A DNA stretch of 61,823 bases, counting the filler, from Dugesia japonica (Eukaryota), in assembly GCA_001938525.1 (NCBI GenBank). It is 6 parts of 6 records of this genome, joined end to end, with 100 filler letters (N's around TTAATTAATTAA, not from the genome) between each part and the next. Parts side by side here need not be neighbours in the genome. Positions count along the whole stretch, not along the records: positions 33,156 to 41,913 come from MQRL01264980.1; 5 more parts are not named here. One strand, given 5' to 3'. A program made the translations under genes and the position numbers. How positions within the stretch are numbered: position 1 is the first letter of the stretch; the number at the start of each line of letters is the position of its first letter. The notes beneath the pieces are model-generated. The model was not told the origin of the DNA. It saw only the letters and a list, made by a program, of their open reading frames with translations, and did no database searches. Below, in pieces: positions 4,292-52,759 of the stretch.

Positions 4292-4450
4292 TAAACAATC
4301 GAGTCAATTTATTTTTGAAATTTAAACATTAAACAATAAAAAAAAATAATAAATTCTTTAAAATAATTAAAATGAATTTAAAATTTTATTGTTTAAATAA
4401 ATTTTTCTACATTACATACAGTTTAATGTGATCATTAAATAAAAAAAACA

Positions 4451-6070
4451 ATGTCTCTTAAAACCAATTCAACCGAAGACATTATAACAATTGTCAATCA
4501 TGTTTCGTACAAGAAAACTGAAGGAAAACTATACTTGATGACAGAAAGATTAGCTTGGAAGACGAATACTTCAGATTCATTTAAAATTAGTGAATTTTAT
4601 GTCAATGTTAAAAACCAAAGAATCAGTCCTGATGCAAAAGACAAAGTTCAATTACAACTTATAATGCATTTAAGTTCATCTCACACTTTTCATTTTACGA
4701 ATCCCGGTGGGAGAGAAGCACAAATTATAGATCGAGATGAAATTAAAACTAAACTCTCTGAATTATTGCCTAGATATAGGGATAAAGCTCAAAAGGAACT
4801 CGTAGAGAAAAAAAGAATTTGTGAGCAAAATCCACATGTTCTCAGTTTATATCGAGAACTGGTTGCAAATCGATATTTATGTAAAGAAGATTTTTGGATT
4901 CAAATTGAAAAAACAATTAATAGGTTGTCACAAAGCGATTATTCAAACCTTCCAAAAGGTGTTCCGACGATACTTCTGGTAAATTTAGGTCAAAATAACC
5001 GACAAGTAGAATGCAGTGAAGCAATGACTAAAGATATCTTTAAAGTTTATCAGTCAGTTGAAAAATGTTTTCATAAAAAAGAACAAACAAATAAAGATTT
5101 CTGGAATAAATTTTTCCAGTCTCATTACTATCATTTGTTCAAAATATATCAGCCTGATGATATTTTTTGTCAGTGTGAAGAAAAAGATATTATTATTATA
5201 AAAAATGAAGCTGAAAATCTAAAATCTTCANNNNNNNNNNNNNNNNNNNNNNNNNNNNNNNNNNNNNNNNNNNNNNNNNNNNNNNNNNNNNNNNNNNNNN
5301 NNNNNNNNNNNNNCACAACATCTCAACAGCTTATTAGAAGAGTAACTAGACAAAGTGCTTTGATTATGAAAACGATGACATCGATTAATAATGTAAAACG
5401 GCCTCACAGTTATGAATCAATTGATTTGGATTTTGAAATAAAAAAACCGAAATTAACAACATCTGAAATTTTGTTAAACAATGAAGAGATGCCAGTTTTC
5501 ACTGGGAAAAATATTCAAGAAGAATTTATTTTTTATAAATCTGATCGAATAAAAAATTATATTGCCAAAATGTCGATTAATAAACGAACGATAAATAAAT
5601 CGGTAAATAAAAATTTCCGACTGAGAAAGATCAAAGAAATGAAACCCTTGGAAAATCTCATGTTGTCGTCTGATGCAATAGATGTTTTAACAGAAATTGG
5701 ACATTTGTTTTCTAATTCAGATTTACAAAGAGTAAATAATGGATTAATCAATAAGAATAAAGATAATTCAGTTAAAGAGGTGATTAATGATCTGAAACGA
5801 CTTTATCAAACCTCATCGGAATTGTTTCGCCATTTTTGGCAATGTTTTCCGATTTATAATGCTGAAAGATTTGAAAAGCTTCATAGAATTATAGAATCGA
5901 TAAGAAAATTCAAAATAGAAAAAATCGATAGTTTTATTAATGATCATAGTAATTATTATTTAATCACGGGATCAATGGAAAATAAAGCAATCGATCATTT
6001 AGTTTTGATGATTGGAAAAATTAATCAAGCATATGAGCGTTATTTAAAGAATTATAATAAATATTGTTAA
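4451..6070 (+). CDS. GTF2H1: General transcription factor IIH subunit 1 (p62/TFB1)
   Basis: 539-aa ORF with one internal N gap. N-terminal TFIIH PH domain (YKKTEGKLYLMTERLAW...QRISPDAKDKVQLQL...TFHFTNP), two BSD-like motifs (LYRELV...EDFW; IFKVY...FWNKFFQSHYY) and C-terminal ELFRHFWQCFP. Confidence 0.93.
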   Translation: MSLKTNSTEDIITIVNHVSYKKTEGKLYLMTERLAWKTNTSDSFKISEFYVNVKNQRISPDAKDKVQLQLIMHLSSSHTFHFTNPGGREAQIIDRDEIKTKLSELLPRYRDKAQKELVEKKRICEQNPHVLSLYRELVANRYLCKEDFWIQIEKTINRLSQSDYSNLPKGVPTILLVNLGQNNRQVECSEAMTKDIFKVYQSVEKCFHKKEQTNKDFWNKFFQSHYYHLFKIYQPDDIFCQCEEKDIIIIKNEAENLKSSXXXXXXXXXXXXXXXXXXXXXXXXXXXXTTSQQLIRRVTRQSALIMKTMTSINNVKRPHSYESIDLDFEIKKPKLTTSEILLNNEEMPVFTGKNIQEEFIFYKSDRIKNYIAKMSINKRTINKSVNKNFRLRKIKEMKPLENLMLSSDAIDVLTEIGHLFSNSDLQRVNNGLINKNKDNSVKEVINDLKRLYQTSSELFRHFWQCFPIYNAERFEKLHRIIESIRKFKIEKIDSFINDHSNYYLITGSMENKAIDHLVLMIGKINQAYERYLKNYNKYC

Positions 6071-12563: not shown

Positions 12564-12663
12564 NNNNNNNNNNNNNNNNNNNNNNNNNNNNNNNNNNNNN
12601 NNNNNNNTTAATTAATTAANNNNNNNNNNNNNNNNNNNNNNNNNNNNNNNNNNNNNNNNNNNN
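12564..12663. other. Artificial scaffold-joining spacer
   Basis: 44N-TTAATTAATTAA-44N, exactly 100 bp, with stops in all six frames. Confidence 0.95.
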
Positions 12664-13599: not shown

Positions 13600-15850
13600 T
13601 TCATTTTCTTCAATAAAGAAGAGCAATTTTAGTTTATGAGCTAATTTAAGCCATTTTTGACGTCCTTATTCTGATCCACCAGGATGCAGTAAAATTAGCT
13701 TTATCTTTAGGTGGGATAGTGTTGTTAAGCCAGTCTATACCTTTCTCAAATGAATATGTGTTATCGTTTCTGAATCTGTGTTTCCGGTATGCTCAAGTTC
13801 TCTAGTTGTAAACACTTTGAAACAATTATTTTGAGAAATAGGGATCCGGAAGGCATTTACTTTACTTTGGTTATAGTACTCATCGGTTAAAGGTTGCAAA
13901 CTTAATCCACCGAGATTAGATGGAACTTAGAGAAATGCACTGTAGTGACTGCTAATTGGAGCTTGAATTATGTTCTTTATTAATCTTTTAATAATCCTAT
14001 CGTATCCTGGTTGGCCTGTGTTTCGATCAACATTTTTGTAATGAAAGTTGTTCAGTTTCATATGGAAAATATCTCTATTCAGCATAGCGTAGATAATTCT
14101 TGAATTAATAACCATTTTGTACGCTTGGAATTTTAGTGATGGATGAAGATTGCTTTCTGTGATTTTTGCAAAGTCTTCTATGGCACTGTTGATGATGTCT
14201 TGAAGTTTGTATATTTACCTTCTTTAAATGGTACTCCTAAGTAATTGTAAAGGTTTTCTTCATTAATTCTTGGAATTGCTACATTGTAAATTTTGATATT
14301 GTAAGTTTCATTAAGGATTTCTTTAAGTTGGAAGAATCCACATTTGCTTGGTCTGAACTTGAGATGGCTTGAATCCGTAAAACTTATAATTTTGTTTATC
14401 ATATGATTCAATTGATTGTAATTGTTGGAGATAAATACAAAATCGTCTGCATTAACTAAAATAGCAACATCGTATCCATTAAGAGTTAGAGGAAATGCTT
14501 TTGAGGTTTCTCTAATAATGAAACCAATATTCAAGCTAAAAAGTATCAAAGACATAGGGCATCCGTGTTTGACTCTTTTGATGATTTTGATATCGCTTGT
14601 TGTTATGTCTAGACATTTGTAAGAAGAATAAACATCTCTGTATAACTCCTAAAGAAAATTAATGATTTCAGGGCAACTCATGAATATTTCCATAGGCGTC
14701 TGCCAGATCAAGCTAAGTGAGATTAAGTTTCCATTTCTCGCGCTCAGCTTTTTTCTAATTAATTTTATTGTAGCATTGTGCAGTGAGAATCATTCTGACA
14801 TGTTAACCGCATTTTGAGTTGGTGAGAGTAAGTTTTCTACGGAAATCCAACTGAGAATTCCGGTTTTCATGAAAACTGCAAATAACCGATATGAGGTATT
14901 TAAAATTGCTATAGGTTTCCAAGATGAGACTAGATGAGATTCCTCTTCTTTACCCGGTTTTAAGATTAGATTAGTAAAGAACGTTTTCCATTAATCAGGT
15001 ATATCCTTATTCTTTAGAATTCTTTAAATTAGAGTCAGTGATTGGGGTCAATTTTAAGCCAGTCTGACTAAGTAATTTTACCCCTCCCGGGTGATATTTT
15101 GAAATGCTGTTAAAAGCAGTTTTGGTTTTATTTAATGCTATTTCGTTGTAAGTGTGAAAATCGTCAAAAGCTCGAATATCAAGAAGTTTAAACTTATGTA
15201 TATTTACGTTCTCCGGCAGAATCTGAGTAAAATGATTGCTAATATTATTTTTAGTTGGCGTTGAGTCTGGAATTGTAGATTCAAGAATTTCATGAAATAC
15301 TTTCGAAGGGTTTTCATATATCTGCTCTAAAGTGGGGATTTAGATCCAGTTAGATCATCTCTAATCTTGTGGAAAGGGAGTTTTGCCCCTTTATTGATAA
15401 GCTTGTTAAGAACTCTTTTGAGTAGTTCTCTTGATGCTTTATTGAGCACTTTGTTTGTGTTCATTGTGCCGTCTCTAATTCTTATAATGAAAGAAGTCAT
15501 ATTTGGTTTCAAGTTGATGTTATTAGATGTACAAATCTCTTTAATATGATTGTTGACCATGGAGTTGATTTCCTGTTTATATTGGTTAATATCTGGAACA
15601 GTGAAGATTTTGTTATTGAGTAGACGTTTTTTAAAATGTTTCACAAAAACCTTACAACCATAGTCACCTCTTTGAGTAGGATGCTTGTATGATGTTTTGA
15701 TTGTTAAGTTTATGTTGTCTTTAGGATTGCAGAAATTATAAATTATTTTGTTAATCTTACCATAAAGATCTATCTGTTCAATTGAGAGGTATGGTGAAGC
15801 TGGGTCAATCAGGATGGATTCAACTTTATCTTTTATAACTGATTCTAAAT
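13600..15850 (-). mobile_element. R2-superfamily (NeSL/Utopia-like) non-LTR retrotransposon RT pseudogene
   Basis: SPGRGKIT*SDWLKIDP, WKTFFTNLILKPGK...SWKPIAILNTSYRLF, VKHGCPMSLILF, ILVNADDFVFIS, LKFRPSKC, YNYLGVPF, PSNLGGLSL. Confidence 0.85.
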
Positions 15851-23695: not shown

Positions 23696-23795
23696 NNNNN
23701 NNNNNNNNNNNNNNNNNNNNNNNNNNNNNNNNNNNNNNNTTAATTAATTAANNNNNNNNNNNNNNNNNNNNNNNNNNNNNNNNNNNNNNNNNNNN
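23696..23795. other. Artificial scaffold-joining spacer
   Basis: 44N-TTAATTAATTAA-44N. Confidence 0.95.
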
Positions 23796-33055: not shown

Positions 33056-33155
33056 NNNNNNNNNNNNNNNNNNNNNNNNNNNNNNNNNNNNNNNNNNNNT
33101 TAATTAATTAANNNNNNNNNNNNNNNNNNNNNNNNNNNNNNNNNNNNNNNNNNNN
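33056..33155. other. Artificial scaffold-joining spacer
   Basis: 44N-TTAATTAATTAA-44N. Confidence 0.95.
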
Positions 33156-35500: not shown

Positions 35501-35949
35501 CATTTTTTATTCTTTGCTAAACTCTGTGAAATTTATAAAACTTAGAGAAATTAAGGAAATTAATAGAAATTTGACAAATCCTAAAATAAATCAGTCTATA
35601 TTTTCATCACAGATTTATACATATTTATGTAATTACTTATGAACTTAGTAATATTTTCAGCAACTTTATAAAATCTTGTTATCCAAATATAATTTTGACT
35701 TGAAAAATTGCAAACTAATATCTCAATGTACAATAGATGGTGACAATTTGGTTATAGATGTTTAATAATTTATAAGGCTATACAAATGTAAGGAAAGAGG
35801 CTTTTAATAGGAAAAAGAATAAAGTGATAAACAATTCATTGTGTACTTATTTAAATAATAATTGATTTAGGTCTTCCGTTTTTTATTGCATTGATAATGA
35901 GAATGTTACAGTCATTTCCATTATTTGTTAGAGACGATTTACTTCAGAT

Positions 35950-36300
35950 TATCGTGAATTTTGTTATTAGTGTGTGTAATCATAAGTTAAAATTTAAGAT
36001 ATGCATTGGAAAAACATAAAAAATCGTTGCTAACACTTAATGTTTCCATCATAAAAAGCAACCCAATGACTTCCTTTTTGATTTGTATTTTGATAAATAT
36101 AAAATATACTTATTTTTCGAGACACACGTGTCTGGGATTTTAGTAGTGATCTTATTTGTCATTAATATTTGAATCCTAAAGGGCCTCATCTCTAAATTTA
36201 AAAATTTTGCAATAGAATACAAATCAAAATTAGTTTTATTATTAATTCCAAATGTTTTTAAAAAATCTAAGATCCGGTAGTAATTTTCTTATATGAACTA
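35950..36300 (-). pseudogene. Adenain-like cysteine protease fragment (Polinton)
   Basis: FRDE...IYQNTNQKGSHWVAF contains the catalytic-His motif GxHWVA. The C-terminal Cys motif is not recognisable. Confidence 0.6.
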
Positions 36301-36931
36301 ATAAAGAAATAGTTTCACCACCAAATCAATTGGATTATTATTTTCATCTATAATATTAAATTTTAAAGAATCAATACATTTGAAGTTTAATCTTGAATAG
36401 ATAGGAGTCAAAGGTCTTTCTATAATTTTAAAACCAAAACTACAATATTTACATGAAACGAATATAATAGATTCATTGGAAATTCAATGATATAATTACC
36501 TTTAACTAAATTGCTAGTTATATTTATCATATTAATGTTTAATATATCAACTTCATTTTCTGAATAATATTTTCCTGGTAAATATGCTTTTAATAAAAAA
36601 CCTAAGATTGAATGAAACAAAGATTTAACACCAAATTGTATTGTATGTTTTGCTGTTAAAGCACATTTTGTTGTTGATATATCAGGAACCATTTCAATTC
36701 CATAATCTTTTAATTTACTAGAGATTTCATTAATTCCATAAGCACCTGGTTCAATGGACTTTGTTGTTTTTTCAATATAAAAGTATTATTTTTATTAGTA
36801 ACATTAAAAATTATATTATCACAATTAAAAGATAATAAAGCCATTTCATAATCAGAATCTTATTATATTGGAAAGCTTAAATTAACTTCTAAATTAAATT
36901 CTTATCCAATAACTAAAAATTGATGAGACAT
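36300..36931 (-). pseudogene. Polinton minor capsid (penton) protein
   Basis: DYEMALLSF..NIIFNVT, IEPGAYGINEI, SILGF..YYSENEVDILNINMINITSNLVKGNY, LYSF, FNIIDENNNPIDFGGETI; frameshifted. Confidence 0.7.
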
Positions 36932-37893
36932 TTTATTTAACTAAAATTTATAATGCAAAGGTTTCATACCTAAAATATTTGTTTTTATAAACATTATATA
37001 TTTTCTTTAGTAATTAATTTGTAATCTAATAATTCTTTACAAACAGATTTAATTTCTTTGTGTATTATTATTATTATTCTTTGTGTATTATTCTGCTGAA
37101 ATTAATAATGTTAATCTTTCAAACAAAGATACTGGCTCTGGGTTTAAAGTAGAGTTTGAAGTAAAGTTTGAAATTAATTCTAAGCCTAATAATATCATCT
37201 TGAATTTCTTTTTCCTCAGTTAAAAATTTATAATATTTAGAATTAGGATGAACTGAAATATTAAAATGTTTTAAATAAATATCTTTTGCTTTTGAATTAT
37301 TACTTTCATTTCCTAAAATTAAATTCATTATTTCTTCAGAATAAGAAATTAGTTCTTGGTTATTTAAAAAGTATTTCTTTCCATTTTCTTCAAACAAATA
37401 TATTACTGTTTGTGATCCATTAAGATTAGGACAAATTATTATTTGAAAGTTTTACCAAAAATAACTTCTTTTTCAAATATAAGTATATTTGTGAGAGACT
37501 TTAAAAATTCAGTATTTACAATAGTACTTGGAAAGAAAAGTATTCTTTTTTGAAAAGGGTTTATTGGTTTTGTACTTAATTTTTCAGTAGCCTTAATTGT
37601 TGTTCCAAAGTAAAATTGTGTTGTAAAGTTTTTGATTCAATTACTCCTTTAGTAATTAAATTATCATAGTCATCTTCAGATTTAATTAATTCTTTCTAAA
37701 GTTTTATTCTTACCAACATTTCTTCATTATTTATTTTATTTAGGATTATCATGAGGATTGTCATAAGGTTTTAAATTTAAACCATCACGACTAGTTTTTA
37801 TTTGTATTCCATTTTTAATGTTTTTAGTAATCAAGTTCAACTCTGGTAAACTATATTTTAAATATTTATGAATTGCACTTCCTTGATAAGGTT

Positions 37894-38247
37894 TTAAGTA
37901 AAGTCCTGAACCCTCTTTTGTAATTCTTCTTTTTTCTTATTTGCTTCTAATTTTTCTTGAAATTCCCTTCGGTCACGAGTATCAATGAGTTTTCTTTTCT
38001 GTAATTCAACTAATTCAGTTTCTTTTTGTTTTTTAATTGCATCTCTAGAATTACTTAAAGTACTAGCAATTCCAGTGGCATTAACAGCAAGGAAAGCAAA
38101 TCCTACTTCATGTTTTTTACATAATTTCTTTTTTATTTCTTTTTTAGCTATATTACCAATCCTAAAGATTTTACCATTACTTTTTACAGATTTACTTTTA
38201 TTTGAATTTATCAAATCAATTAATTTTTGTTCTGATATTGAAAGCAT
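37894..38247 (-). CDS. Polinton/adintovirus cupiennin-like (putative membrane-active/core) protein, probably decayed
   Basis: Basic N-terminus, then KKHEVGFAFLAVNATGIASTLSNSRDAIKKQKETELVELQKR (amphipathic GF..L...GIAS motif plus coiled coil). Position within the block supports the call. Confidence 0.5.
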   Translation of the reverse strand: MLSISEQKLIDLINSNKSKSVKSNGKIFRIGNIAKKEIKKKLCKKHEVGFAFLAVNATGIASTLSNSRDAIKKQKETELVELQKRKLIDTRDRREFQEKLEANKKKEELQKRVQDFT

Positions 38248-38569
38248 TTTATTTACTTATAGTTTGAAAACAATAATTCAAATTCTCTTTTGAAAATTAA
38301 ATCCTTTTCTCCTCTCACTTCTCACCTTTCATCTCCTCTTTTTGCCTCCCTCCTCCGCTTTTTCCTCTTAATTTAAGAGGCAGGAGAATTTTAAAGAGGT
38401 AAGAGGTATTTTAAAGAGTAGAAATAAATTAAACCTCTTTACCTCTTTAAAATCATCTTTCTCTTCTTCAAAAAAATCTTCAATCAACACATTTGCTACT
38501 CTATCTAAATAGTAATAATTATACTTTGTTTTCAAATGTAAATTTACATTATAATCATATTCCATTTAA

Positions 38570-39222
38570 CTAGAAAATATATTACTAAATAAATTATAAT
38601 AGACATTATCTTTATCAGTTTTATTTAATTTAAAAAAGATGAAACAATTAGAATTGTTTCTAATTGAATTTATATCCAAATGAAAATATGTTGAGAAATA
38701 AAAATTACATTAAAATTCACATGGCTTCCTCTAGTAAAATAAATTTTCTGAATTTCTTGATCTTTAACATTTACAACATCATCAAAAATTATTAAATTCT
38801 TTTTTTGTTTATATATTTTATCACAAGGAATAATTTCATTTGGTTTATTACTTAAAACTACGTTTATCAATCTTTTTTATTTGTTAAATATTCTTTTGCT
38901 ATAAACCATTGAATAACTTGCAATGGTGTTATTAAAGAATGTAACCCTTTAGAATCAGGAACTATATTTTGATGTTCAAAAAAAAAATAATATCTTGTTT
39001 TGTTAATCCATTTTCAAAACCATGATAAAGTTATTGTAATTCAAATTGGTTTATAGTTGTAAAATAAATTATCAAAGTATCATTATCTAAAAACACTCGA
39101 GTTACTAACATTTTCATTAACAAAAAATTTTTACCCGATCCAGAAAATCTAATTATTAATAATCTAAATTTAAATGGAAAGATTTTATGATTAAAGATAT
39201 TTTTATTCCAAATTAAAGCCAT
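38570..39222 (-). pseudogene. A32/FtsK-like DNA packaging ATPase (Polinton type 1)
   Basis: FRLLIIRFSGSGKN (Walker A), NLIIFDDV (Walker B), IYFTRGSHVNFNVIFISQ, SIRNNSNCFIFFK. Confidence 0.88.
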
Positions 39223-39244
39223 TTTTTATTTATTAAAATTTATA

Positions 39245-40124
39245 AAACCGTTTTATGAAGTTCATTACTATAAAATCTACCCAGAATCTTTTCATTTTCT
39301 AAATCAGTAATTCCATTAGTAAAAGGTTTTTTCTTGTAAACTTGGGTTACAATAAATATTTCATTTGTCCATTTAGCCATTAACCCTTTTCAAATTTATA
39401 TTTATATTTAAAGATTCTAACTCGATCACTAATTTTAAATTTCTGTTTAAAACTAAAGTTATCATTTTCCTGATTATCACTAGCTTCCTTTGGTGTTGCT
39501 TTTGTACTAGAGTGAATTGTATTATTATAATCATCAACCATTTTATCTAACAAGTTTTTATTCTATTTTTGATGGGACCCGTTGGGATTTCCAACTAGCG
39601 TCAAATATTTCCACATTTTATTTTTTAGAGTTCTAATAAATCTTTCAGCAAAAACTGATTTACCTTCATTTTCTGTGTGATATAATTTAATATCATTTTC
39701 TTGAAGAAATTTATCAAAATATTTTGATCTAATTGCTGACTCTTTATCAAACCATATTTTCCTTGGTACGCTGTCACTAGTTTCAAATATAAGCTTCTTT
39801 TATTGATTCTTGATTTTTATTTTTAATTGTCTTACAAAAACCAAATCTGGAATATAAATCAATACAAACTAAAATATATCTATATTTTTCTTTATCAATA
39901 GATTTTTTAACCATATCAATAATATCACAACCCCAAGTTTCATAAATTTCATTAATTATTACTTTTAGGAAATTTTTTGGTTTTCTATAATCTTTATGAA
40001 GTTCATTTGATAATATGGCATGACTGAAAGGAGTTCCTTGTTTCTCTTTATTTTCAATATTTGAGCGGAAAATCTTCGCTGTGCTCTGACTTACCCCAGC
40101 ACCTAAAATAATTTTACCTTTCAT
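39245..40124 (-). pseudogene. Polinton retroviral-like (rve) integrase
   Basis: LSNELHKDYRK, WGCDIIDM, YILVCIDLYSRFGF, IWFDKES, KSVFAERFIRTLKNKMWKY, YNNTIHSS, WTNEIF, GRFYSNEL. Confidence 0.92.
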
Positions 40125-40425
40125 TGTTAATTTTACTAAACCTCTTTGTATTTTTTCAGAAGTAGTTGGATTTTCAATTTTGTTTAAATCATGAAATAAA
40201 TTTACAGTAGCTAAATGTTTATCTCTTAAAACTGCTTCATCAACTCTATTAATTGGTTCTTCTCCAGGTTTTGGATTATTATTTTTATCTAATCTTGTTT
40301 CTGGTCCAGTATAATTTAAGTTTAAACAAATGTCTTTCTCCTGGATATTTTTCTCAAGTAAATGGTTTTTAAATTGTTGAAGTTAATTTATAAGATTGAA
40401 GATCGCCTCCTTTCTTTTTACATAT
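40125..40425 (-). pseudogene. Parvovirus-type phospholipase A2-like (PLA2X) domain, in frame with the integrase
   Basis: KKGGDLQ...KYPGERHL, NYTGPETRLD...GEEPINRVDEAVL, then RDKHLA. The HDxxY core is missing. Confidence 0.72.
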
Positions 40426-40599
40426 TTTTAATCGGTAACTGTTATATTTTCGCAGAGTTAAATTATGATCCTGCTCGATTTGTTGATCGATGCTCTTCGA
40501 CATTTGTTTTCTTCTCATTACTTTAGATGGTTGCTCAATTGCACCTATTGGTAGTAATTTAAAATCCATCATTAATAATATTAAAATAAGAAATTTATG

Positions 40600-41033
40600 C
40601 ATATATATGTATATATAATTTAAAATGTCTTTTTTAATTTCATTGATGATTTCATGATAATCGAGTGATTTTAATCCGAGAATCACGACTTTTCTACTAA
40701 CAAAAACATTAACACATAATGGTTTATACTTGTTAATTCGTAATGCTGAAAATAATTCTGGTTCAGACCAACAATTTAATGCACTAGTCAATCTATATAA
40801 ATTCACCACATGTCCAAGATTATATGTTACCGTAATTGATTGGATGCGGTCTATTCCTTATCCACGATTGGTTTCTTGCATACCATGATTCGAAATTTTC
40901 CCTATTCAAAAATATTCATCCAGTAATCTTTTATTTTCACTATACATTGTTGGGGTTTCTTCCAAGTATTAAATTGAAGATGATGAGATCTACAATCAAC
41001 TATGCGACCCTTATAATTATTATTTGATAACAT
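40600..41033 (-). pseudogene. Divergent TATA-binding-protein (TBP)-like gene within Polinton-type DNA
   Basis: Repeat 1: MLSNNNYKG...MNIFE*GKFRIMVCK. After a frameshift (~40850), repeat 2: RIQSITVTYNLGHVVNLYRL...SEPELFSALRINKYKPLCVNVFVSRKVVILGLKS. Compare TBP KIQNMVGSCDV...[34 protein letters not shown]. Confidence 0.75.
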
Positions 41034-41121
41034 TGTTTGGCAAATGAATAATAGTCATGAGCTTATATACTCTCACGTGCTTCATCTATATAAACAAAAT
41101 CGATTTTTATAATTTCTAAAA
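41034..41121. promoter_or_regulatory. Putative bidirectional promoter between the TBP-like gene and the ATPase
   Basis: TATATAA on the minus strand (41069-41063), palindromic CACGTG (41074-41079) and TATATAAA on the plus strand (41087-41094), between divergent ATGs. Confidence 0.45.
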
Positions 41122-41750
41122 ATGATTTTACAAAACAATNNNNNNNNNNNNNNNNNNNNNNNNNNNNNNNGTGGCAAAACATTATTTGTTTGCAAATTAT
41201 TGCAAAGCAAATTGTTTCGGACAAAATTCAAACATATTTATTGGTATCAAAGGGGTGGAGGTGAAGCTGGCTTGACGAATGGTGAATTTTGCAAGTTGAG
41301 AAAGATTACGATAATTGATGTATTCGATGATGATTGGTTAGAGATTAAATACTGGAGATGTTATTGTAATTGATGACTTGTTTCAAGAGGTAAACAAACA
41401 GGCTGATTTTAATAATCTCTTTACAAAAACTGCTCGTCATGGTAATGTAACTGTCATCTTCATTACCCAGAATCTTTTCCATCGAGGTGGTATGCATCAC
41501 ACACGTAATTTAAATGTTCATTATTTGGTTTTATTCAAAAACTCACGAGATTAAACTGTAGTTGACTATATTTCTCGTCAAGCATTTCTTCAATATAAAG
41601 GATTTTTATCTGATGCATTTTGCGATGTTACTACAAAACCACATGGATATTTACTTATTGATTTTTACACAACAATGTCCGGATAATGAACGAGTAAAAA
41701 CCGATATATTCAATTCCGAAGGAATAACAGTTTAGAAACAATTGGTATAA
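41122..41750 (+). pseudogene. A32/FtsK-like DNA packaging ATPase (second, distinct Polinton type)
   Basis: GKTLFV (Walker A partly in an N gap), DVIVIDDLF, LFTKTARHGNVTVIFITQNLF, NLNVHYLVLFKNSRD, AFCDVTTKPHGYLLIDF. Confidence 0.9.
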
Positions 41751-41913
41751 ACAAAATTAGTACTGAATAAAAAACAAGAAATGAATCAATTTTAAAAAGT
41801 TGTCATAAAAAAAGGGTGGTGGTAATTTGAGACGATTTCCACGAAGTATTCCATACTTTAAGGCAATTTTAAGGGCTCCATCAAATTCTCGATGGCAAAT
41901 TATGCACTCCATG

Positions 41914-42013
41914 NNNNNNNNNNNNNNNNNNNNNNNNNNNNNNNNNNNNNNNNNNNNTTAATTAATTAANNNNNNNNNNNNNNNNNNNNNNNNNNNNNNN
42001 NNNNNNNNNNNNN
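41914..42013. other. Artificial scaffold-joining spacer
   Basis: 44N-TTAATTAATTAA-44N. Confidence 0.95.
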
Positions 42014-43511
42014 AAACGAATTTAAATTTTTTGTATTTTGAAACAGAATTTATTGAAATCAGAAATAATAAGTCATTAAAATAGTTTGTCAAATAAATTT
42101 AACATTTTTACGTAATTACCAGTATAAAGAAAACGAATTTTATAATTTATTTTATTTAGAAAACGAAATTTTAGACTTTGAATTTGTTTACAAAAAGCGA
42201 ATTTGAAATTTATGATTTATTTTAAATTTAAAATTGTTAATTTGCAAGGTATATTAAAATTTTCTAACTTAATAACTTAATATTTTTAATTTTATTGCAA
42301 TTTATAAAATTATCAAATTCCTGATTTTAAATAAAATATATTTTTTATTGTAATTTTAAATTTTACGTTATTTATTGAAAATTAAAATTAACTAATTGAA
42401 ATATTTTTAAACCAACTGATATTTTTTTATTTTCGTTTCTAATAAAAATTTTTTTAAATTTGTTTGAAAAAGACAAATTTATATTCTGTGTTTTTTGTTT
42501 GTGTTATAATTGAATAAATTTTGGAAATGGAAAGTGTTGATTTCTTAATTACATCGATAATTACTCCAAACTCATCTAACAGATAGTTTTTGAGTTTCGT
42601 AAGTATAATAATGCCGCCAATGCTACAAATACAATTAATCCTTCTGTATAAATATTGGAACATGTCAATGTTGGCTGAAAAAATTTAAGAATGGAGATTT
42701 CAGTGTTCTCAACAGTATAAAACCTGGACGACCCACTGATGTTGATAATGATCCATTGTTCACAATAGTGCTTAAAGTAACTTAACAAAGTGCAATCAAC
42801 TTTCATTTGAAAACAAATTCAACGTATAACAATCTGTAGAGTCCTTTTGTTCAGGTTATTTGTTTCAGGTTTCGCAGATAGATTTTTCTCCAACAAGTTG
42901 TTACTGGAGATACAAAACGGGATTCTATATAGCAGTCCACATAAGAAGAGCAATGGCTATAATCTTAAAGCAGTTCTTCATCCAAAAAAAGATTTTCCTG
43001 TCAGTATGGTGGGATATCAAAGGAATCATTCATTATGAGATACTTAAATCTAATCAAACTGTAAAATTTGGTTATTATTGTGCTCATCTTTATTTATTAA
43101 ATGCAGTTTTGATAAATAAACGACAAAGATTGATATAAAGAAATGGTGTGATAATTCTGCATGCCAGAATCCTCAAAGAAAAAAAATCATAGAGTTAGTT
43201 TTGGAAAAACTGCCTAGCCACACTTTAGTTTCCCAATGCTGCGCCATGATATTATAAACTTTTTAGGTCCATCGAGTATTTTCTTCGTGGAAAAAAATCT
43301 TCTACTGTAGAGGGTATCCAAATTGGACTTGGAGAATATTTAAATAATCTTCATTTTTCAAAAAGCGAATTGAAATCTAGAAAGATAGATGGGCACATTT
43401 CGTAAATAATGGTGGTGATTATATTACGTATTACAATTTCTATTTTTTGTTAAACTGTTAAAAAAAAATTTGTTTATTATAAAAGAAAGACATATCTTGC
43501 TACACCTGATA
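42014..43511 (+). mobile_element. Mariner transposon, decayed transposase plus 3' TIR
   Basis: FEFRKYNNAANA, WLKKFKNGDFS...PGRP, QVVTGD, LHPKKIFLSVWWDIKGIIHYEILK, YYKLFRSI, RWAHFVNNGGDYI. End tcttgctacacctgata. Confidence 0.9.
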
Positions 43512-52659: not shown

Positions 52660-52759
52660 NNNNNNNNNNNNNNNNNNNNNNNNNNNNNNNNNNNNNNNNN
52701 NNNTTAATTAATTAANNNNNNNNNNNNNNNNNNNNNNNNNNNNNNNNNNNNNNNNNNNN
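52660..52759. other. Artificial scaffold-joining spacer
   Basis: 44N-TTAATTAATTAA-44N. Confidence 0.95.

Follow-up and report, generated by a model that had tools for sequence, protein, structure and literature searches.

The TBP-like gene and its surroundings in the window

The window, a stretch of 61,823 nt from Dugesia japonica, consists of contigs chained through 100-nt linkers (44 N, TTAATTAATTAA, 44 N) at 12564-12663, 23696-23795, 33056-33155, 41914-42013 and 52660-52759. Given that the linkers join separate contigs, genes lying across a linker are not true neighbours. The gene considered here resembles that of the TATA-binding protein (TBP) and occupies 40603-41033 on the minus strand, in the contig spanning 33156-41913. 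Its frame starts at 41033, is interrupted by an in-frame stop at 40902-40904 and resumes in a different frame at about 40855. The 5' piece (40860-41033, minus), corresponding to repeat 1, contains the stop and gave no Pfam match by itself; it matched the profile of the family described below at E 1.7e-14 and is 50% identical to the relative P0001. The 3' piece (40603-40857, minus), corresponding to repeat 2 with the EPELF stirrup and the NVF strand, matched the Pfam TBP family PF00352 (E 1.2e-6, 28.7 bits, above the gathering cut-off of 22.9) and the family profile (E 1.8e-27), and it is 67% identical to P0001, the closest intact relative.

The minus-strand frame, the stop, the frame change and the EPELF and NVFVS words, all listed in a preliminary description of this DNA, are present in the sequence. 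What was described there as a frameshift is indeed a frame change near 40855, but it reflects a net loss of about 28 nt relative to P0001 and not a one-base slip. A contig from the DNA run X1, possibly the source sample of the assembly, is identical to 40862-40981, so the stop is present in the reads as well as in the assembly; at the stop position most of the read depth differs, and the lesion thus belongs to the window copy. With one stop and one frame-shifting deletion, this copy is dead. It retains 32 of the 36 family-conserved columns, and we consider it almost certain that 40603-41033 is a decayed copy of a real Polinton-borne TBP-like gene. The frame stays open to 40372 (minus), about 75 codons beyond the end of intact relatives, and this extension (40372-40572) could represent either non-coding DNA or a small gene of its own.

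Upstream of the gene, a consensus TATA box, TATATAAG, lies at 41062-41069 (minus), where it putatively serves the TBP-like gene, and an initiator-like word, TCATT, follows it after 24 nt, against a family mode of 32 nt. Head-to-head with the gene is a broken packaging ATPase of the A32/FtsK type (41122-41741, plus), assigned by identity and profile matches and 64-70% identical to the ATPases of TBP-bearing loci. It points away from the TBP-like gene, a layout also found in L040 and L004, and its start at 41122 is on the TBP-like gene's side of a 31-N gap (41140-41170) within the ATPase. The motif TATAAACA, a candidate late promoter, is located 33 nt ahead of the ATPase start (41089-41096, plus), and a second copy precedes the next gene (41746-41753, plus). 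Of that gene only the beginning is present (41833-41913, plus), cut by the contig end; a weak profile match (E 5.6e-4) places it in the small family F5, which we take to be cupiennin-like and which comes after the ATPase in relatives. The ATPase and this fragment are all that is left on the contig of the TBP-bearing element's own genes besides the TBP-like gene.

The other flank holds a decayed Polinton block (35990-40382, minus) with a PLA2-like gene, an integrase, a different ATPase, and penton-like and adenain-like pieces. The ATPase and the penton-like and adenain-like pieces were named by eye, and the two Pfam matches fall below the cut-off (E 0.0074 for PLA2-like, E 0.012 for rve). Given that the integrase is distant (28-39% identical in pieces to the integrases of TBP-bearing loci) and that a second ATPase is present, this block probably belongs to a second Polinton. 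The border between the two elements is uncertain, since L060 has a PLA2-like gene beside its TBP-like gene. Hence, the earlier placement of the gene between Polinton genes on a single contig holds for the contig, but the flanking genes probably derive from two elements.

Several other features were observed in the window. At 35827-35971 (plus), a weak match (E 4.5e-5) to the small post-ATPase gene has ATAAAC upstream and was not recovered by the profile; it may be a further remnant of this type of element. A broken PolB on another contig (15819-17178, minus) has pieces with 30-51% identity to the PolB genes of TBP-bearing loci and may come from the same element family. The host gene for TFIIH p62 lies at 4439-6070 (plus) as an uninterrupted frame of 543 codons with an N run inside (Pfam PH_TFIIH, E 3.7e-18); it aligned with human p62 at 194 bits, and the matches listed were all p62/GTF2H1 chains, in keeping with a host that is probably an animal. 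Fragments of a reverse transcriptase (RVT_1; 14181-14648, minus) and of a mariner-type transposase (42830-43135, plus) were also detected.

Intact relatives, predicted fold and DNA-facing surface

Searching with the window 3' piece retrieved 58 relatives among 63 candidates, 43-67% identical to it and mostly 144-157 aa long. At E<=1e-30, a profile of 45 relatives recovered the representatives of 59 clusters formed at 50% identity; with the threshold relaxed to E<=1e-10 the number was 718, ordinary TBPs among them. Two relatives scored 63.1 and 40.6 bits against PF00352. Only weak evidence on fusions was obtained from a search for longer family forms, with 1 match among 162 candidates. Queries A1, P0309 and P0247 recovered no member of the family from IMG/VR viral contigs, and neither did A1 from prokaryote genomes. 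For 42 intact-looking genes from the fetched loci, dN/dS was below 0.5 in 28 of 30 pairs (65-97% identical, some sharing sequences), with a median of 0.19; the exceptions were one pair at 1.21, with few changes, and one saturated pair. Judging from these ratios, the family evolves under purifying selection.

Many related copies exist in the same organism. Contigs matching 40629-41139 at 80% likeness numbered 201 and 216 in two DNA runs, and 122 and 133 of them, respectively, were less than 90% alike to the window copy. Their depth, which is not copy number, was 700-1800 for some and about 4-17 for others. Two partly read RNA runs gave 69 matching reads (25% of the run read) and 2 (6% read), none of which reached 95% likeness to the window copy. 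Related copies, rather than the window copy, appear to be transcribed at a low level in one sample. First mates were mostly on the plus strand, which is sense for the TBP-like gene if the library was stranded in the usual way.

The structure of the intact relative P0003 was predicted with a pLDDT of 94.5, with strands in both repeats and helices in the second repeat only. No helix precedes residue 80, and the canonical H1 and H2 of the N-terminal repeat are absent, giving a predicted two-repeat TBP saddle without first-repeat helices. Helix H2 of TBP is the binding place of TAF1, Brf1 and Mot1. Distant family members retain the repeat-1 helices in the alignment. Foldseek returned 44 PDB matches at E<=0.001 for P0003, and among the matches listed all were TBPs or TBP-containing chains, with 21-27% identity and TM-scores up to 0.80 against solved TBPs. 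The structural check thus agrees with the TBP assignment, and repeat 2 is TBP-like by Pfam as well, although its alignment 'almost residue for residue' with TBP was an overstatement at 21-27% identity for the relative. Repeat 1 is shortened, as had been noted, but does not consist of one strand only; given that it is modelled with its strands and no helix in an intact relative, the shortening is for the most part shared by the whole family and not a result of decay.

To compare residues, we aligned 9 ordinary TBPs with 109 family rows, consisting of 108 of the 150 listed sequences, chosen by a length of 130-230 aa, plus P0003; residue numbers and roles are those of yeast TBP. Percentages below refer to the 109 rows. 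Three of the DNA-wedging phenylalanines are kept (F116 in 94%, F190 in 99% and F207 in 99%), as are N69 (80%), P191 (83%) and the acidic TFIIB stirrup residues E186 (90%) and E188 (98%). The fourth phenylalanine is lost, F99 being replaced by proline in 87%, and this could weaken DNA bending. Further replacements are V122 to R in 94%, T124 to M in 98%, V71 to N in 61%, N159 to S/T in 99%, V161 to T/S in 98% and L205 to N in 99%. The canonical set of four phenylalanines and Asn/Val/Thr/Leu minor-groove contacts is not found in the family, and according to the alignment polar residues have taken over much of the DNA-facing surface throughout the family. Considering that the helix-keeping distant members share these swaps, we infer that the change of the DNA face came before the loss of the helices.

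A quick unrooted tree of 66 rows included 35 of 110 family rows and 11 others, which together formed one side of a branch with an SH-aLRT value of 100 (46 family rows); 9 ordinary and 11 viral TBPs were on the opposite side. Four of 15 viral loci were omitted (one with a stop, one duplicate and two partial), and the rows contained no TRF2 or TRF3, the searches having returned none. The window copy grouped with P0001, P0002 and P0046 in a four-row set with a value of 96. The tree proposed in the preliminary description, built here from these rows, separates the family from the cellular and other viral TBPs in it.

Carrier elements and promoter words

The metagenome scan yielded 60 loci from 109 pattern matches. 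Counted with profiles built from the same loci, a core Polinton gene is present in 27 of the 60 TBP-like loci and in 15 of the 20 with a length of at least 3 kb. The neighbours of TBP-like genes encode A32 ATPase, rve integrase and adenain (all by Pfam), PolB, and capsid. PolB, for which there were no PolB Pfam matches, was named from motifs and an endonuclease VII match, and the capsid protein, without a match by Pfam or PDB sequence search, was identified via its fold: the model of a 408-aa neighbour matches the double jelly-roll capsids of PBCV-1, iridovirus and mavirus with E down to 2e-14. PolB, rve integrase, A32 ATPase, adenain and the double jelly-roll capsid occur together on one element, as seen in L013 and L076. 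Fetching by the capsid gene, as a draw not biased by the TBP-like gene, gave three loci, of which only the long one, L076 (12.7 kb), carries a TBP-like gene, located between adenain and an exonuclease-like gene; the others end too soon. ATPase and capsid queries for TBP-less Polintons had no matches in viral contigs, and no RNA polymerase gene was seen in the TBP-bearing loci.

Other observations concern the gene content of these elements. L076, L077 and L078 are Polinton contigs filed within bacterial MAGs, which is probably eukaryotic contamination. At L013:1502-2135, L001:873-1571 and other loci, donor- and acceptor-like words suggest that families F4 and F1 are the two exons of a single spliced gene, and F1, F9 and F13 resemble, by eye, each other and single-strand-binding proteins. 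Between the motif and the integrase start, L008, L011, L012, L013, L040 and L042 have a small frame that starts with Met-Gly and ends with Cys, possibly a myristoylated virion peptide. Cargo includes ubiquitin-conjugating (L010:225-719), RING-finger (L042:1710-2168) and LRR (L029:1918-3327) genes.

Upstream of the ATPase, F5 and integrase genes, ATAAAC was found in 24 of 28 non-redundant regions, with 3.45 expected. Among 12 related ATPase upstream regions, its distance to the start is 31-36 nt in 11 and 47 nt in the other; the motif is likewise at 36 nt in L055 and in L060, a locus that falls among the helix-keeping members in the tree. Motif-to-start distances vary widely outside the ATPase. 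When genes were divided into 'early' and 'late' classes, which are labels assigned from gene type, YATAAAC preceded 45 of 52 virion and integration genes versus 5 of 64 in the TBP gene and its class. In 500 shuffles of the 52 regions, it was present in 2.7 regions on average and in 9 at most, and on the opposite strand it was absent (0/52). It was also recovered in gene families held out of motif discovery (21/24) and in the held-out loci L076 and L077 (11/12). The p-values of the motif overstate its significance, given the relatedness of the loci, some of which derive from near-identical elements. Exonuclease-like (6/9) and LRR (4/5) genes are preceded by the motif too, and in the window none of the 4 guessed starts to the left of the TBP-like gene carries it.

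The TBP gene and its class showed the reverse pattern, with initiator-like TCA words in 45/64 regions versus 5/52 before virion and integration genes, full TATAWAWR in 34/64 versus 10/52, and a modal TATA-to-initiator distance of 32 nt. The elements thus have two promoter types, one TATA/initiator-like and the other a strictly oriented YATAAAC. CCAAT boxes looked enriched at the TBP gene, but the classes proved alike (21/64 versus 15/52, p 0.69). We also discarded a role of the motif as a poly(A) signal, AATAAA not being enriched (14 versus 16.5 shuffled) and the motif being present without an upstream same-strand gene in the window, L040 and L004, and a protein-coding origin, as it is found in intergenic positions (14), in two reading phases (18 and 6) and across stop codons (5).

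The N-terminal repeat of TBP reads the 3' half of the TATA box. It is in this repeat that the family's strongest swaps (F99, V122 and T124) fall. The TATA consensus is T-A-T-A-W-A-W-R (PMC1935006), from which YATAAAC departs at position 7 (C), and the TBP phenylalanines wedge at TATA positions 2 and 8 (PMC12236790).

Possible role and comparison with known systems

The preliminary description proposed an element-encoded TBP that could direct or sequester host Pol II machinery at the element's promoters. That the element encodes its own TBP is borne out by the fold, the gene neighbourhood, the tree, the selection and the many related copies in the same organism. Directing Pol II gains a concrete candidate target in the YATAAAC motif; sequestering has less support. 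We consider it rather probable that the intact protein is the element's late-gene switch, reading YATAAACA and working with host Pol II. According to this model, host TBP/TFIID would transcribe the TBP-like gene early from its ordinary TATA/initiator promoter, and the TBP-like protein would then bind YATAAACA through its altered DNA-facing surface. The kept acidic stirrup would recruit host TFIIB and Pol II, switching on the packaging, capsid and integrase genes, and the loss of the first-repeat helix would represent an escape from the host regulators that grip it. The full proposition, that one re-specified TBP of about 150 residues, lacking the helix gripped by host regulators, runs the early-to-late cascade of a Polinton by recruiting TFIIB and Pol II, seems to us evenly balanced between right and wrong. 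Counting against the switch, the motif is found at those 5 of 64 'early' regions and before exonuclease-like and LRR genes, its distance to the start is far from uniform outside the ATPase, and only 34 of the 64 'early' regions have the full consensus TATA.

It is possible, but rather unlikely, that the element TBP acts as a helper or decoy binding TFIIB or AT-rich DNA, with YATAAACA being read by host TBP or a Forkhead-type factor. ATAAACA fits the Forkhead consensus, yet GTAAACA occurs in 1/52 regions versus 1.1 in shuffled ones, other Forkhead-type words are not enriched, and ATAAACA is found 42 times in sense and 0 in antisense. Reading by host TBP has in its favour that wild-type cellular TBP was solved on a C(-25) TATA variant (1qn3), showing that host TBP is able to bind there, at least in the crystal, which also counts against the switch; the TFIIB stirrup is, moreover, among the best-kept features of the family. 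Against the helper or decoy stand the position of the motif 31-36 nt ahead of the ATPase start in 11 of 12 loci and the near-invariance of the replaced DNA-facing residues, which points to a specific ligand.

We regard as improbable that the protein no longer takes part in transcription initiation and instead serves replication, packaging or repression by binding element DNA, for instance single strands or AT-rich termini. The TBP-like gene is often beside genes that by eye look single-strand-binding or exonuclease-like, and the TBP of Giardia, which has lost phenylalanines, prefers ssDNA (PMC12209930); the Polinton family, unlike it, keeps three of the four phenylalanines and both stirrup acids, and a matching TATA variant is present at promoter distance. 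As to the idea that a host TBP/TRF gene gave rise to a processed pseudogene now lying between Polinton remains, the window copy is intronless and broken and the tree had no TRF2 or TRF3 row, but this origin is hardly credible: the copy nests among intact Polinton-borne genes (the four-row set at 96) and matches the family at 32 of its 36 conserved columns, each of the two DNA runs yielded about 200 contigs related to it, and its ATPase neighbour is shared with its relatives. The single-copy case named earlier as a possible refutation is therefore contradicted by many copies and Polinton-linked relatives, and the intact versions with the same ATPase that had been asked for exist, their ATPases being 64-70% identical to that of the window.

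With regard to the timing of Polinton capsid genes, the family offers a candidate activator and a candidate site for the late-gene switch; a timed late programme also bears on whether Polintons are true viruses. If the proposition of a one-protein cascade is true, no viral switch for late transcription is known that is smaller; the protein would have arrived independently at a solution parallel to that of herpesvirus ORF24, and its altered specificity would be of natural origin. The DNA face of TBP is among the most conserved surfaces in biology, and its wholesale replacement in a family that keeps the TFIIB stirrup would show a way in which TATA specificity can change.

In print, a figure label already exists for such a gene in a virus related to Polintons: Starrett et al. 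2021 (PMC8502044; preprint 10.1101/697771) used 'TBP' for a gene of MELD viruses with adintovirus-like PolB, which may belong to the family described here. In the text searched, the label occurs once in the journal version and twice in the preprint, always in figure legends and without analysis, and the readable supplement maps lack it. Neither TBP nor TATA is mentioned in PMC11161782, and such a gene is not named in the accessible part of PMC8097293. Among the matches listed in the Polinton, adintovirus and Maverick literature on TBP, TATA and promoters, as far as it was accessible, no study of the TBP-like family or the YATAAAC motif was found.

With cellular and archaeal TBPs (PF00352; 1ytb, 1cdw, 1mp9), the Polinton TBP-like family shares the predicted two-repeat saddle and the EPELF stirrup, at a profile match probability of 99.4%, and it differs in its length of 144-157 aa, in the replaced central DNA contacts and, in the window subfamily, in the absence of repeat-1 helices. 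TBPs of giant viruses (Nucleocytoviricota) and IMG/VR share the virus-encoded TBP fold (25 BFVD matches at E<=0.001); these giant-virus and other viral TBPs are 9-20% identical to the family at that threshold, and the 11 in the tree group with cellular ones. Giant viruses usually bring their own RNA polymerase. The herpesvirus TBPs (KSHV ORF24, EBV BcRF1 and HCMV UL87) share the TBP fold, a more polar DNA face, a TATA-variant late promoter and the use of host Pol II, and BcRF1 shows a distant structural likeness to the family (E 0.011, 11% identity). The TBP-like surface of KSHV ORF24 is more polar, and the protein reads TATTWAA late promoters (10.1101/2025.08.25.672222). As described there, ORF24 is large, keeps the four phenylalanines, has no TFIIB-binding acids and binds Pol II within a six-protein complex, whereas the Polinton protein, at about 150 aa, keeps the TFIIB acids and has lost one phenylalanine.
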